In this document: positions 6,429 through 47,193 of the stretch, one piece after another | Layout: each line of letters begins with the position of its first letter | How positions within the stretch are numbered: position 1 is the stretch's first letter | Assembly: GCA_015069415.1 (NCBI GenBank) | Contig: SVIQ01000003.1 | Span: 19,300-83,299, forward strand | DNA length: 64,000 nucleotides | Direction of reading: 5' to 3' | Source of the DNA: Clostridiales bacterium | GTDB taxonomy: Bacteria; Bacillota; Clostridia; Christensenellales; UBA1242 | Notes under the pieces: model-generated | Databases searched by the model: none | Seen by the model: only the letters and a program-made list of their open reading frames with translations | Told to the model about the DNA's origin: nothing | Made by a program: the position numbers and the translations under genes

Positions 6429-6457
6429 TTGACTTTTATTGATAAATTAGATATAAT
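6429..6457 (+). promoter_or_regulatory. sigma-A-type promoter of the metG leader (TTGACT-17-TATAAT)
   Basis: TTGACT at 6429..6434, a 17-nt spacer, TATAAT at 6452..6457. Confidence 0.65.
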
Positions 6458-6478
6458 GAATTATATCAAGGAGAAAAA

Positions 6479-6532
6479 ATGACATTTAATTTTGTAGCAG
6501 AACTTAATATGATGAGCACTATGTTAGTTTAA
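6479..6532 (+). CDS. candidate Met-rich leader peptide MTFNFVAELNMMSTMLV
   Basis: AAGGAG 5 nt upstream of the ATG. 17 codons plus TAA, and 3 of the last 7 codons are ATG. Sits between the promoter and a terminator upstream of metG. Confidence 0.4.
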   Translation: MTFNFVAELNMMSTMLV

Positions 6533-6588
6533 TATAACATAGATGTTTGTTGCGCAAATTTTAATATGTTTTAAAAAATAATAAAAAG

Positions 6589-6620
6589 AGAGCATCGAAT
6601 GTCGGTGCTCTTTTTGTTTT
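6589..6620 (+). terminator. intrinsic terminator inside the metG 5' leader (attenuator)
   Basis: AGAGCATCG-AATGT-CGGTGCTCT (9 bp, one G.U pair) followed by TTTTTGTTTT, 96 nt upstream of the metG ATG. Confidence 0.7.
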
Positions 6621-6715
6621 GGAGGTAGTATGATTTTACAGTATAACAATAATAGACTAATGCGATTTTTATTAATATCAAAAAATAATAAAATTAAAAA
6701 AAGGAGAAATTAAAA

Positions 6716-8302
6716 ATGAATAATATATTTATAGGACTATCTTGGCCGTATGCAAACGGCGAATTGCACATTGGACATTTAGGTTCATCTTTACCCGCAG
6801 ATATTTTAGCTAGATATTTTAGACTAAAAGGGGAAAATGTATGCTTTGTAAGTGGAAGCGACTGTTTTGGAACACCTATTTCAATTCAGGCCCAAAAAGA
6901 AAACACAAAACCAGATATCATTGCGAACTTTTATCATGAAAAATTTGTTGAAATTTTTAAACAATTAGATTTTTCTTTTGATAATTACACGAAAACATCA
7001 AACGAATATCATATAAACTTTGCAAAAGATTTTCATGATGATTTATACAAAAGTTCTTATGTGTACAAAAAAGAAGAACAACGATTATTTTGTCAAAGTT
7101 GTAAACGATTTTTGCCAGACAGATACGTATTAGGACTGTGTCCTAAATGCGGGAATATCACTAAAGGTGATGCATGCGAAAAATGTGGGAAAATCTTAGA
7201 ACCTGAAGAACTGTTTAATCCTAAATGTGGAATTTGCAATTCAACACCTATCTTAAAAAATACTTTTCAATATTATTTAGCATTATCCAAATTAGAAGAT
7301 CAATTAAAAAAGTTTTATCAAAATAACAACGAAAATTGGTCAACAAACGCTAAAAAATTAACCGAAAGATACTTTAGTGAAGGCTTAATCGACAGAGCTA
7401 TTTCTCGAGATTTAGATTGGGGAGTTCCTATTCCCTCTTCCGACTCTAAAGAAAAAGTTATTTACAATTGGGGAGAAAATGTTTTAGGTTACGTTGACGC
7501 TTGCAAAGAATATTGCGAAAAAAACAATTTCAATTTCAATGATTGGTTCAAAAGCAACGATTGTAAACATTATTATATTCACGCCAAAGACAACATTCAG
7601 TTTCATACAATAATATACCCCGCACTATTACTTGCAAATAGCAAACAATATCATTTGCCCGACAACATATATGCATACGAATTTGTAAACAATGAAGGAC
7701 AAAAAATTTCTAAAAGCAAAGGAACTTGTTTGACAGCCAGAGAATTATTAGAAAAATTTGATGTTGACTTTTTAAGGTTTTACTTTGCAAAAAATATTAG
7801 TGATAAAAAAGACTTAGATTTTAGATTGGAAGAATTTGCAAACACCGTAAATGGCGAATTAATTAACAACTGGGGAAATTTTGTTAACAGAACTCTATCT
7901 TTTGTAAAGAATAAATTTAATGGAAAAATTAAAAAATCTGTTCTTGATGATAATATCAAAACAAGAATTGAAGAAACTTTTACTAACACATCCAATTTCA
8001 TTGAACAAGGAAAAATTGCTAATGCTTTGAGAACAATTTTAGAACTTGTTGATTTTTCAAACAAATATTTCAACGAAACTGAACCTTGGAACGCTTTTAA
8101 GATTAATGAAGAAAAATGCAAAAATTTATGTTATCAATATCTTTCTCTTATATTGAATTTGGCAATTTTGTTAAATCCATTTATTCCTAAAAGTAGTAAC
8201 CAAGTCTTGAATTGGTTAGATACAAAATTAGAACGTTATCAAACAAATGAATTGTCAGATGTTGAAATTTTAGAATTTAATCCTTTGTACTCTAGAATTT
8301 AA
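6716..8302 (+). CDS. metG: methionyl-tRNA synthetase (short form, no C-terminal tRNA-binding domain)
   Basis: HIGH motif (ELHIGHLGS), KMSKS-type KISKSKG, and a CPKCG...CEKCG zinc knuckle. Confidence 0.95.
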   Translation: MNNIFIGLSWPYANGELHIGHLGSSLPADILARYFRLKGENVCFVSGSDCFGTPISIQAQKENTKPDIIANFYHEKFVEIFKQLDFSFDNYTKTSNEYHINFAKDFHDDLYKSSYVYKKEEQRLFCQSCKRFLPDRYVLGLCPKCGNITKGDACEKCGKILEPEELFNPKCGICNSTPILKNTFQYYLALSKLEDQLKKFYQNNNENWSTNAKKLTERYFSEGLIDRAISRDLDWGVPIPSSDSKEKVIYNWGENVLGYVDACKEYCEKNNFNFNDWFKSNDCKHYYIHAKDNIQFHTIIYPALLLANSKQYHLPDNIYAYEFVNNEGQKISKSKGTCLTARELLEKFDVDFLRFYFAKNISDKKDLDFRLEEFANTVNGELINNWGNFVNRTLSFVKNKFNGKIKKSVLDDNIKTRIEETFTNTSNFIEQGKIANALRTILELVDFSNKYFNETEPWNAFKINEEKCKNLCYQYLSLILNLAILLNPFIPKSSNQVLNWLDTKLERYQTNELSDVEILEFNPLYSRI

Positions 8303-44041: not shown

Positions 44042-44356
44042 CTAAATACATTCAACACTTGCGTTCAAAACATGCTCAATATTGTCGTTTTTTATGTAAT
44101 ATACTACATTTTTACCATTGCGTTCACACTCTACAATATTTAAAGATTTTAGAAGTTTTAATTGGTGACTTACGGTAGTTTGATTAATGTTTAGAATGTC
44201 AGCTATTTCTCCGACGCACAACTCTTTTAACATTAAAAGAATAATTATTTTCAGTCTAGTGTCATCACTAAAAGCGTAGAAAAATGAGGTCATATTCTTG
44301 ATATTTGACTTGTTTGGTATATATTTCTTTAGTTCAAATTCGTCCATTATTTCCAT
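44042..44356 (-). CDS. ArsR/SmtB-family transcriptional regulator
   Basis: FYAFSDDTRLKIIILLMLKELCVGEIADILNINQTTVSHQLKLLKSLNIV (winged HTH with ELCV in helix alpha-3). Confidence 0.8.
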   Translation of the reverse strand: MEIMDEFELKKYIPNKSNIKNMTSFFYAFSDDTRLKIIILLMLKELCVGEIADILNINQTTVSHQLKLLKSLNIVECERNGKNVVYYIKNDNIEHVLNASVECI

Positions 44357-44463: not shown

Positions 44464-44655
44464 ATGAACTCAACTGCATTATACATATTGTTTGCAATCT
44501 TAATCTCTGTAATCGCACAAGCAACCAACACAGATCTCGCAAACAACACTTCTTTCTTATTGTTACTTTTGCTAGCATTGGGCGCTTACGGTCAAAACAA
44601 CAATAACAATAATAACTGTTGTTGTAACAATTTTAACCAACGAAGTTTCTTTTAA
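44464..44655 (+). CDS. candidate 63-aa two-TM peptide ending ...GQNNNNNNNCCCNNFNQRSFF
   Basis: Divergent from arsR. AAGGAG lies 11 nt upstream of the ATG. Two hydrophobic segments. Followed by a bidirectional terminator. Confidence 0.4.
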   Translation: MNSTALYILFAILISVIAQATNTDLANNTSFLLLLLLALGAYGQNNNNNNNCCCNNFNQRSFF

Positions 44656-44688: not shown

Positions 44689-45673
44689 ACAATAATCCCA
44701 TGTTTTGTTTTGCTCTTTCTAAAGTTTCCTTTGCAACAACTTCAGCTTTCTTTGCACCCTTTTTCATTATTTCCATTAATTCATCTTCATGAGACAAATA
44801 GTACTCATATTTCTCTCTAATAGGTTTTAAAACAGAAATTATTGCTTCTGCTGTTCTATTTTTCAATGCTCCATAACCAAGACCTTCTAACTCTTTAACA
44901 ACATCTTCAATTTCTTTACCTTCACAAGCTGAAATTATAGTTAAAAGATTGCTTACTCCAGGTTGATTTTCTTCATCAAATTTAATTTGATTTAAGCTGT
45001 CAGTTACTGCTCTTTTTACTTTTTTAACAATAACTTCATCTGAATCTTCAAGTAAAATCATATTGTTTACATCGTCACCAGATTTACCCATTTTTGCTTG
45101 AGGATTTAACAAACCTTTAATTCTAGCACCAACTTTAGGAACTACCGCTTTCGGAACTACAAATGTTGCACCAAAACGATTATTAAATCTATTTGCAATA
45201 TCTCTTGTAAGCTCGACATGTTGCACCTGATCTTCTCCTACCGGAACAATGTTAGTATTAAACAACAATATATCTGCAGCCATAAGAACAGGATAAGTAA
45301 ACAACGCAGTTGTTAGCCCCTTTTCTCCTTTTGCAACATGATCTTTATATTGAGTCATGCGGTTTGCTTCACCCATCATAGTATTGCAATTTAACAACCA
45401 ACAAAGTTCGCTGTGTTCTTTTACTTGAGATTGAACATAAATAATAGACTTCTCTGGATCTAATCCGCATGCTAAAAACATAGCAAATTGTTTCATTGTC
45501 TTTGTTTTTACAAAGTCCGCAGACAAATCAACAGTATGAGCATGAAGATTTGCAATACAAAAATAGCAATCGTACTCATCTTGCAACTTAATCCAATTTT
45601 TTATAGCTCCAAGATAATTTCCAATGGTTAAATCTCCTGTAGGTTTAGTTGCACTATATAAAATCTTTTTCAT
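44687..45673 (-). CDS. trpS: tryptophanyl-tRNA synthetase
   Basis: KPTGDLTIGNYLGAI (HIGH region) and KMGKSG (KMSKS). 328 aa. Confidence 0.93.
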   Translation of the reverse strand: MKKILYSATKPTGDLTIGNYLGAIKNWIKLQDEYDCYFCIANLHAHTVDLSADFVKTKTMKQFAMFLACGLDPEKSIIYVQSQVKEHSELCWLLNCNTMMGEANRMTQYKDHVAKGEKGLTTALFTYPVLMAADILLFNTNIVPVGEDQVQHVELTRDIANRFNNRFGATFVVPKAVVPKVGARIKGLLNPQAKMGKSGDDVNNMILLEDSDEVIVKKVKRAVTDSLNQIKFDEENQPGVSNLLTIISACEGKEIEDVVKELEGLGYGALKNRTAEAIISVLKPIREKYEYYLSHEDELMEIMKKGAKKAEVVAKETLERAKQNMGLL

Positions 45674-45684
45674 AATATCTCCTT

Positions 45685-45738
45685 AAATAAAAACACTTGA
45701 TGCGTTCGTAATGTTATCCACAAAACATGCACCAAGTG
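45685..45738 (-). terminator. intrinsic terminator-like hairpin inside the trpS 5' leader (attenuator)
   Basis: Minus strand reads CACTTGGTGC-(25 nt)-GCATCAAGTG followed by TTTTTATTT. The single G.U pair works only in the minus-strand RNA. Ends 11 nt before the trpS SD. Confidence 0.6.
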
Positions 45739-45802
45739 CAAAATATTCAACAAATGTCTTGTGGCGAAATTAAAAACCACTTACACTAAATGTAAGTAAA
45801 AT

Positions 45803-45832
45803 TTATTTACGCCAACCATACATTCTAAACAT
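45803..45832 (-). CDS. candidate leader peptide MFRMYGWRK containing a Trp codon
   Basis: AAGGAG 6 nt upstream of the ATG, at the very 5' end of the predicted transcript. TGG lies at 45812..45814 and overlaps TGGCG, which can pair with CGCCA 46 nt downstream. Confidence 0.35.
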   Translation of the reverse strand: MFRMYGWRK

Positions 45833-45852
45833 TTTTTTCTCCTTATATTATA

Positions 45853-45881
45853 AGTATATCTAACAAAAACAATTTTGTCAA
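45853..45881 (-). promoter_or_regulatory. promoter TTGACA-17-TATACT of the trpS leader
   Basis: Minus strand reads TTGACA aaattgtttttgttaga TATACT. Confidence 0.6.
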
Positions 45882-45914: not shown

Positions 45915-45942
45915 GTAAAAAAAATCCCGCAAATGCGGGATT
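45915..45942 (-). terminator. rho-independent terminator after tuf
   Basis: Minus strand reads ATCCCGC-ATTT-GCGGGAT followed by TTTTTTT. Confidence 0.85.
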
Positions 45943-45987
45943 TTAGGATTTCTAATTCGTTTTAGGTTTTGTTAAAATCTTTAAAGA

Positions 45988-47193
45988 TTATTTAATGATT
46001 TCAGCAACAACACCTGAACCAACTGTACGTCCACCTTCACGGATAGCAAATCTCATACCTTTTTCGATAGCGATTGGGTTGATCAATTCGATTTCCATAG
46101 TAAGGTTGTCGCCTGGCATAGCCATTTCAGTTCCTTCTGGAAGCTTAATAGAACCAGTAATATCAGTAGTACGAACGTAGAATTGAGGACGGTAACCATT
46201 GAAGAATGGAGTTGTACGTCCGCCTTCTTCTTTCTTCAATACGTATACTTCAGCCTTGAATTGAGTGTGAGGAGTGATTGAACCGATTTTAGCCAATACT
46301 TGTCCTCTTTCAATTTCAGTTCTTTGGATACCACGAAGTAATAATCCAGCGTTATCACCAGAACGAGCTTCGTCAAGTGACTTACGGAACATTTCAATAC
46401 CAGTAACTACAACTTTACGTGTAGGTTTGATACCAACTAATTCAACTTCTTCGTTAAGTTTAAGAACACCACGTTCAACTCTACCTGTAGCAACAGTACC
46501 ACGACCAGTAATAGAGAATACGTCTTCAACTGGCATTAAGAAAGGTTTTTCAGTGTCACGTACTGGATCTGGGATGTAAGAGTCAACAGCGTCCATTAAT
46601 TCTCTGATGCAGTCGCAAGCAGCGTCATTAACGTTACCAGCTGAAGCAGCTTCAAGAGCCTTAAATGCAGAACCCTTAATAACTGGGATGTCATCTCCTG
46701 GGAATCCATAAGAAGATAACAATTCACGAATTTCCATTTCAACCAAGTCTAAGATTTCTGGATCGTCAACAAGGTCAGTTTTGTTCATGAATACAACGAT
46801 GTAAGGAACACCTACTTGACGAGCAAGCAAGATATGTTCTTTAGTTTGAGGCATTGGACCGTCAGTAGAAGCAACAACAAGGATTGCTCCGTCCATTTGA
46901 GCAGCACCAGTGATCATGTTTTTAACATAGTCAGCGTGTCCTGGGCAGTCAACGTGTGCATAGTGACGTTTTGCAGTCTCATATTCAATGTGTGATGTGT
47001 TAATTGTAATACCACGAGCTCTTTCTTCTGGAGTGTTATCGATACCAGCATAATCTTTAGCGTCAGCCTTGAAGCCCATTTTAGCTAAAGTAAGGTTGAT
47101 AGCAGCAGTAAGAGTAGTCTTACCGTGGTCAACGTGACCGATAGTACCAATATTAACGTGTGGTTTACTTCTGTCAAAGTTAGCTTTTGCCAT
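45988..47193 (-). CDS. tuf: elongation factor Tu
   Basis: [13 protein letters not shown]...DCPGHADY...NKTD. Confidence 0.98.

Follow-up and report, generated by a model that had tools for sequence, protein, structure and literature searches.

A probable leader-peptide attenuator ahead of trpS in a clade of uncultured gut Clostridia

The trpS leader and its elements

The stretch of DNA analysed here, referred to throughout as the window, comprises 64,000 nucleotides (nt) from a Clostridiales bacterium (contig SVIQ01000003.1 of assembly GCA_015069415.1), and our subject is the leader that precedes its trpS gene. On the minus strand, to which all trpS-leader coordinates refer unless stated otherwise, the order is tuf (45988-47193), the tuf terminator (45944-45917), the trpS leader and trpS. 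The tuf terminator, an intrinsic one read from the sequence as AAAATCCCGC-ATTT-GCGGGATTTTTTTT, shields the leader from upstream transcription. The gene that would be regulated has its Shine-Dalgarno (SD) sequence, AAGGAG, at 45684-45679 and its ATG at 45673, and its coding sequence (45673-44687) specifies a tryptophan-tRNA ligase of 328 amino acids (aa), a member of tRNA-synt_1b (Pfam PF00579, E = 6e-70) whose homologues are named tryptophan--tRNA ligase. An earlier note, made from the letters of the window, had read the sequence ahead of trpS as a leader-peptide attenuator rather than a T-box, and had suggested a T-box scan, folding of the leader and alignment of related trpS leaders as checks. 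The promoter, SD, nine-codon open reading frame (ORF), 7-bp hairpin and terminator that it described all lie at the coordinates it gave, and its attenuator proposal is supported by the scan, the folding and the leader comparison alike.

The leader begins with a sigma-70-type promoter, TTGACA-17-TATACT (45853-45881; TTGACA at 45881-45876, TATACT at 45858-45853), which matches the consensus at 11 of 12 positions and is the top site of a 2-kb scan, so placed that the transcript would be expected to start near 45846. There follow an SD sequence, AAGGAG (45839-45844), six A residues and, from the ATG at 45832, the mini-ORF MFRMYGWRK (45803-45832), with the codons ATG TTT AGA ATG TAT GGT TGG CGT AAA TAA. 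Its UGG, codon 7 of nine, lies at 45814-45812 and opens the motif UGGCG (45814-45810); we refer to the mini-ORF as region 1 of the putative switch. Downstream of it stands hairpin P (45772-45799), identified by folding and alignment, whose core ACTTACA/TGTAAGT (45797-45779) grows to 10 bp (45799-45777) when G.U pairs are included, and which is followed by GG and five U residues. Region 2, the switch strand (CGCCACAAGACAT, also given as CGCCACAAGACAU; 45754-45766), is made up of CGCCA and CCACAAGACAU. The former is complementary to the UGGCG of the ORF, a pairing that would act as an anti-antiterminator, and the latter is complementary to region 3, as an antiterminator would be. Region 3 (ATGTTTTGTGG, 45718-45728), recognized by its conservation and by duplex energy, lies in the loop or upper stem of the intrinsic terminator (45685-45739), which has an 11-bp stem, GCACUUGGUGC/GCAUCAAGUGU, followed by UUUUUAUUU (-19.7 kcal/mol). 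As DNA, the terminator arms read GCACTTGGTGC (45739-45729) and GCATCAAGTGT (45703-45693), with TTTTTATTT running to 45685. By its sequence, the transcript from the leader promoter to the terminator would measure about 160 nt. The terminator abuts the trpS SD and leaves no room for a further promoter, so that trpS would be transcribed only by read-through.

Several details of the earlier note need adjusting. The terminator that it placed before trpS is present, its T-run touching the trpS SD (45684-45679) rather than ending 11 nt short of it. The pairing between switch strand and terminator loop, given as 10 of 11 positions, is in fact complete: CCACAAGACAT (45764-45754) pairs with ATGTTTTGTGG (45728-45718) at 11 of 11, the CCACAAGACAU:AUGUUUUGUGG duplex comprising 10 Watson-Crick pairs and one G.U. 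The complementarity of TGGCG (45814-45810) to CGCCA (45766-45762) is also real, at a spacing of 48 nt from start to start and not 46. As for the terminator's lone non-Watson-Crick pair, there is one internal G.U, and counting the outermost pair brings in a second; on the opposite strand each would become a C-A mismatch, and the argument that the structure belongs to the trpS strand holds.

Folding finds the leader to be highly structured. The 177-nt leader has a minimum free energy (MFE) of -49.2 kcal/mol, compared with -30.0 +/- 3.4 kcal/mol for 200 dinucleotide shuffles (z = -5.6, with none of the shuffles as good), and in the free full-length RNA the ORF is predicted to pair with region 2 and the terminator to form. 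The competing region 2:3 duplex reaches -14.7 kcal/mol in the window (z = -3.6). No RNA sequencing run contains the stretch; DNA sequencing runs place the organism at about 5x in faecal metagenomes and hold no informative variants within the leader.

Homologous leaders in related genomes

A lone Trp codon is, as the earlier note recognized, weak evidence, a nine-codon ORF having one by chance about 5% of the time. DNA was fetched around TrpS proteins 74-88% identical to that of the window, the closest named relative being Candidatus Onthoplasma (Clostridia, Christensenellales). Seven further distinct homologous leaders were found before trpS, in metagenomic relatives with TrpS 74-86% identical, making eight with that of the window, and every one carries a mini-ORF with an in-frame TGG. 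The predicted peptides, each followed by a stop codon, are MFRMYGWRK (window), MIKFFGWRI (relative L003), MIKSLVWWRK (L083), MEKRYMNLCWRW (L084), MEKRFMNLCWRM (L087/L088), MEKIFMNLCWRN (L103), MKRLSWRNW (L091/L092) and MKRFSWRNW (L107). All eight leaders thus contain a translatable ORF of 7-12 codons that ends in W-R-X-stop or W-R-N-W-stop, the stop following the conserved TGG by two or three codons in 8/8. In the alignment TGGCGT is invariant across the set and the remainder of the peptide varies; in known attenuator leaders, likewise, the peptide outside the regulatory codons is not conserved.

The pattern of change also has the look of a translated frame. From ATG to TGG the distance is 12, 15 or 24 nt, each divisible by three, and the sole indel near the ORF end is of exactly one codon (L091/L107), where the ORF end has a second TGG. 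Second in-frame Trp codons have been gained in three lineages, as WW in L083, WRW in L084 and WRNW in L091/L107, against an expectation of about 0.45 in the 66 other codons, calculated from the frequency of TGG in the window (0.69% of codons), for a Poisson probability of three or more of about 0.01. These apparent gains address the worry over a single Trp codon. Start signals are in place as well, five of the eight leaders having an SD and the remaining three an ATG that lies 6-9 nt past the -10 hexamer. In two of these three the distance is 6 nt, for which a leaderless start of the mini-ORF is likely, and in L084 it is 9 nt. The relatives' promoters occupy the same place, with TTGACA or TTGACT, 17 nt, and then TATAAT, TAACAT or TATCAT.

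Base pairing has been conserved alongside the ORF. RNAalifold, applied to the leaders, returns three helices: UGGC:GCCA, hairpin P and the terminator. Across the 19 terminator-state pairs, 97% of the alignment cells are paired, as opposed to 29-44% when the partner is slid, and seven of the pairs show compensatory changes, values reached by none of 500 shuffles. In the terminator stem, 4/7 pairs have changed in compensatory fashion across the relatives; hairpin P has eight pairs, 100% paired in the eight sequences and three of them with compensatory change, with a variable loop and an invariant UUU on its 3' side. A hairpin followed by GG and five U residues, with invariant U's among them, is a possible RNA-polymerase pause signal. 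UGGC:GCCA is likewise 100% paired on the alignment, and an extended ORF:region 2 helix figures in the MFE structure of 7/8 leaders. For the 5' part of each ORF, moreover, the region-2 tail of the same leader is a better partner than tails taken from other lineages (means of -6.7 and -4.8 kcal/mol, respectively; p = 0.007).

Region 3 is almost invariant (the TGTTT-TG columns entirely so) while the terminator stem around it varies, an odd property for the loop of such a terminator. The region 2:3 duplex attains -12 to -15 kcal/mol in 5/8 leaders (p <= 0.01 against shuffled strands) and -9.8 kcal/mol in L083, and in several leaders it is as strong as or stronger than the terminator hairpin. Both of the alternative pairings that the earlier note had pointed out are conserved in the leaders of relatives. 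That we are dealing with a conserved leader bearing a translated-looking Trp ORF and a terminator is a conclusion in which we have high confidence.

A covariance model built from the eight leaders (R1) recovers them at 71-137 bits and nothing else in 233 kb, with no further copies within the window or the 51 loci. A metagenome scan with the pattern GTGTRAGTGGN{6,22}GCCACAN{18,48}TGTTTTG, which does not presuppose the ORF, added no homologues; its six matches were set aside as chance, being without leader features and lying mostly in GC-richer (48-62%) DNA. On the TrpS tree, the bearers of the leader include deep-branching members of the clade (L003, L091/L107) as well as members of its crown (window, L083, L084, L087, L103). 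L081 and L104, nested among the bearers, are without it, as are L002, L089, L093 and L100; L085 and L086, whose contigs end too near trpS, were left unscored. This distribution suggests a leader that is old in the clade and has been lost repeatedly.

A few loci invite separate mention. In L104 (85% TrpS identity), positions 135-200 hold no ORF or hairpin, and what looks like a decayed leader is represented by the switch-strand-like fragments CAACAAAACATA, TTGTTTTC and TTTGTGGAC; a Y1_Tnp (IS200-type) transposase gene (1427-1882) lies directly downstream of its trpS. In L001 (76% TrpS identity) the homologous leader is absent, and within 1309-1385 an ATG 6 nt past a TATAAT opens the ORF MKYFVCVNIYKLYRMWAA, closed by a stop, with a Trp codon near its end and a weak CCGC/GCGG hairpin and U-rich run downstream; judging from these features, it may be an independent or strongly diverged analogue. 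Between trpS and the terminator of its leader, L003 (1415-1430) and L083 (1170-1185) have TGTTATAAT, a -10 box of the extended kind, which may be a second, unattenuated promoter of a kind for which the window has no room. On the far side of trpS, and convergent to it, the window has a 63-aa ORF (44464-44655, plus strand) whose hydrophobic N-terminus precedes a run of Asn and CCC. Most relatives have a called gene of 62-73 aa in this position, beside an ArsR-family helix-turn-helix gene (window 44042-44356).

Attenuation and its alternatives

We consider it probable, from the conserved sequence features above, that this leader is a classical ribosome-mediated attenuator, in which the supply of charged tRNA-Trp sets trpS transcription. 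When Trp-tRNA is plentiful, the ribosome would reach the stop two codons past UGG and depart, whereupon region 2 would be held by the ORF through UGGCG:CGCCA and flanking pairs; a ribosome still sitting on the stop would leave region 2 to the GUGG of the melted hairpin P 3' arm. With region 2 so held, the terminator would form and transcription would stop at about 45689. With scarce Trp-tRNA, the ribosome would instead wait with UGG in its A site, the whole ORF covered and hairpin P intact. Region 2, deprived of its upstream partner, would then pair with UGUUUUGUGG once this is synthesised, and the resulting helix would enclose the terminator 5' arm (in the window as UGCAC-UUG-GUGCA) and delay the terminator, allowing the polymerase to read into trpS. 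Hairpin P and its five U residues may pause the polymerase and so keep translation and transcription coupled. The attenuator would thus probably raise TrpS output when charged tRNA-Trp is scarce.

Modelling of the ribosome's position agrees with this scheme. With UGG in the A site, the modelled ribosome spans the ORF from AUG to stop and ends just short of hairpin P, whereas on the stop codon it melts the 5' arm of hairpin P, and the freed GUGG pairs with the CCAC of region 2, favouring termination. For a co-transcriptional test, the RNA was truncated immediately ahead of the terminator 3' arm, with the positions occupied by a ribosome on UGG masked; in six of the eight leaders region 2 then shifts from the ORF to region 3 (UGUUUUGUGG), and in two of the eight the cut came too early to score the region 2:3 helix. 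This helix, in the window, stacks on the small hairpin UGCAC-UUG-GUGCA, which is built from the terminator's own 5' arm and hence sequesters it. L083 shows extensive pairing between region 2 and the 3' arm of hairpin P, which in the model would amount to the same logic operating through a relay.

Attenuation has to be weighed, nonetheless, against several observations that tell in the opposite direction. Half of the leaders (4/8, the window included) have one Trp codon only, and UGGCG may owe its invariance as much to RNA pairing as to codon identity. Masking a ribosome on UGG leaves the terminator as the MFE structure of the full-length RNA in all leaders but L003; a thermodynamic switch in the full-length RNA was accordingly rejected for most leaders, the switch being seen only in the truncated, co-transcriptional fold, and it must be kinetic, as switching is in classical attenuators. 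The antiterminator helix (region 2:UGUUUUGUGG) is 81% paired on the alignment and shows no compensatory change, strand 3 being invariant, so that the proposed antiterminator rests on conserved complementarity and not on covariation; in L087 and L103 it is down to 5 bp (CCACA:UGUGG, -7.2 kcal/mol). It pairs, furthermore, with the terminator loop and not its stem, and a pseudoknotted terminator is topologically possible; in the window, the mutual exclusion of antiterminator and terminator rests on the enclosure of the 5' arm. Lastly, L081, which at 88% TrpS identity is the closest relative, has no such leader, nor have several others, and the leader is to that extent dispensable.

What other function might such a leader serve? 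A T-box would be the customary expectation, and the Rfam T-box model (RF00230) finds none in the window at the gathering score, nor any at E <= 10 with permissive filters on a 551-nt stretch. As a positive control, five more distant, Clostridium-type relatives among the Clostridia (L005, L006, L007, L009 and L011) gave T-box hits of 114-134 bits with this model immediately ahead of trpS. Sub-threshold matches to the Rfam Leu_leader, Phe_leader and Trp_leader models (23-26 bits, with thresholds of 41-55) were rejected; they fall on the tuf terminator region (45917-46025, minus strand), are driven by its hairpin and are unrelated to the leader. Diverged T-boxes are known to escape Rfam (PMC5314783), and for this reason the anatomy was checked too: the sole stem between the transcript start and the switch strand is a hairpin of 8-10 bp with a variable loop, and the predicted antiterminator helix has no UGGN bulge. 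One might still picture a minimal or diverged tRNA-sensing leader in which the anticodon CCA of uncharged tRNA-Trp, or its 3' end GCCA, pairs with the invariant UGGC and frees CGCCA for the antiterminator, the ORF being incidental; CGCCA does, after all, have the letters of a tRNA 3' end with a G discriminator. We judge this very unlikely, for beyond the failure of the T-box model, a Stem I, K-turn or distal platform would have no space in three leaders whose transcripts probably begin with the ATG or immediately ahead of it, and no account would be given of the start signal, the reading frame, the place of the stop or the gain of three more in-frame UGG codons. A combination with ribosome-mediated attenuation could nevertheless be envisaged, in that UGGC:CGCCA mimics the contact between T-box bulge and tRNA 3' end, and uncharged tRNA-Trp could compete there to give a dual sensor of ribosome and tRNA.

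Control of the terminator by a protein or ligand, with TrpRS or another RNA-binding protein reading hairpin P or UGUUUUGUGG and the mini-ORF having no sensing role, finds some encouragement in the conservation of the hairpin P stem (CUUACAC/GUGUAAG) and of UGUUUUGUGG beyond the needs of pairing, and there is precedent in E. coli thrS, which is autoregulated by its own synthetase product. The hairpin P loop varies freely, however, and contains no anticodon-like CCA; a reading of the leader for TRAP-type (G/U)AG repeats (nine to eleven, spaced by 2-3 nt) met only isolated UAG and GAG triplets; and the conserved strands are accounted for by their mutual complementarity, whereas the conserved ORF and the gain of Trp codons are not accounted for by protein binding. 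Such control seems to us unlikely. A constitutive, leaky terminator beside an unrelated small ORF, which would do no more than dampen the output of a strong promoter into trpS, unresponsive to any signal, would sit comfortably with the repeated loss of the leader without loss of trpS, and with the apparent second promoter of some relatives, noted above; a simple damper has no need, though, of a conserved ORF with conserved and multiplying Trp codons, of a conserved loop complementary to an upstream strand, or of an ORF that co-varies with that strand, and we rate it as decidedly improbable. Least credible of all is nascent-peptide arrest of the TnaC type, in which free tryptophan or some other small molecule would cause the W-R end to halt the ribosome on or close to the stop. 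W-R, one or two codons and a stop are indeed invariant in 8/8 peptides, and TnaC arrest depends on a conserved Trp residue. TnaC, on the other hand, is a conserved peptide of about 24 residues with a fixed spacing from Trp to its C-terminal Pro and stop, and it acts through Rho, whereas the trpS leader peptides have 7-12 residues with W-R alone in common and in no case a final Pro, and the leader ends in an intrinsic terminator. With a ribosome on the stop, moreover, hairpin P melts and sequestration of region 2 is favoured, which predicts termination and not read-through; induction of trpS by excess free Trp would make little physiological sense; and the conservation of CGU is accounted for by the UGGCG:CGCCA pairing.

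The metG leader and known attenuators

The only other aminoacyl-tRNA synthetase gene in the window, metG (6716-8302), has a leader of the same design on the plus strand (6429-6715), and the parallel between the two that the earlier note drew is sound. The promoter TTGACT..GATATAAT is followed by AAGGAG-AAAAA-ATG, by a mini-ORF, MTFNFVAELNMMSTMLV, that closes with a stop (6480-6533) and has three Met codons among its last seven, and by a terminator, GAGAGCATCGAATGTCGGTGCTCTTTTTG, about 100 nt before metG. The two leaders thus share a strong promoter, an AAGGAG with an A-run spacer, a mini-ORF with cognate codons and a terminator before the synthetase gene, and they differ in the longer ORF of metG, with its three Met codons. 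No sequence homology was found between the two past the start signals, and model R1 does not match the metG leader. One may ask whether these are two members of a lineage-wide set, in which several class I synthetase genes, trpS and metG among them, have swapped T-boxes for unrelated cognate-codon leader peptides in a clade of small-genome gut Clostridia; we entertain this tentatively, as a possibility that is rather doubtful at present.

An attenuator on trpS would be unusual among the synthetase genes of the Bacillota. Most such genes in Firmicutes are held to use T-boxes and none to use classical attenuation (Seliverstov et al. 2005, PMC1262725), and what we describe would be a new leader-peptide attenuator, unrelated in sequence, in a phylum thought not to use them for synthetase genes. 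In an uncultured clade of gut Clostridia, trpS would be under a leader-peptide attenuator, and metG under one like it, where more distant relatives keep the trpS T-box. The sensor is also very small, a nine-codon ORF with a single Trp codon that would be fully covered by the stalled ribosome, and it offers a compact part for asking how few regulatory codons suffice for attenuation.

The nearest functional parallel is the leader of the E. coli trp operon, trpL (Rfam RF00513). Both have a short Trp-containing ORF, whose Trp codons in trpL lie three positions ahead of the stop, both, on the proposed reading, follow a four-strand logic (ORF strand, switch strand, terminator 5' part and terminator 3' arm), and both place an intrinsic terminator ahead of the regulated gene. 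There is no similarity to trpL in sequence or by model, however, the only Trp_leader match being the sub-threshold one on the tuf terminator. Where trpL governs biosynthesis, the trpS leader would control a synthetase, with one Trp codon, or two in some relatives; it has an extra hairpin between the ORF and the switch strand; and its proposed antiterminator, which encloses the 5' arm, is formed with the terminator loop.

Synthetase genes under ribosome-mediated attenuation are represented by E. coli pheST, with its leader pheM. Attenuators have also been predicted for Streptomyces, ahead of its trpS and leuS genes (Seliverstov et al. 2005, PMC1262725). The present case would resemble both in the attenuation of a synthetase gene through a leader peptide with cognate codons in its ORF, and it differs in belonging to the Bacillota (Clostridia, near Candidatus Onthoplasma) rather than to the Proteobacteria or Actinobacteria. 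With the trpS T-box of Clostridium and Bacillus (RF00230), finally, it shares the gene and would share the signal (charging of tRNA-Trp) and the choice between terminator and antiterminator. The sensor differs, the leader having no Stem I, specifier loop or T-box sequence, and the comparison would thus provide a natural case of sensor exchange in which signal and output are unchanged.

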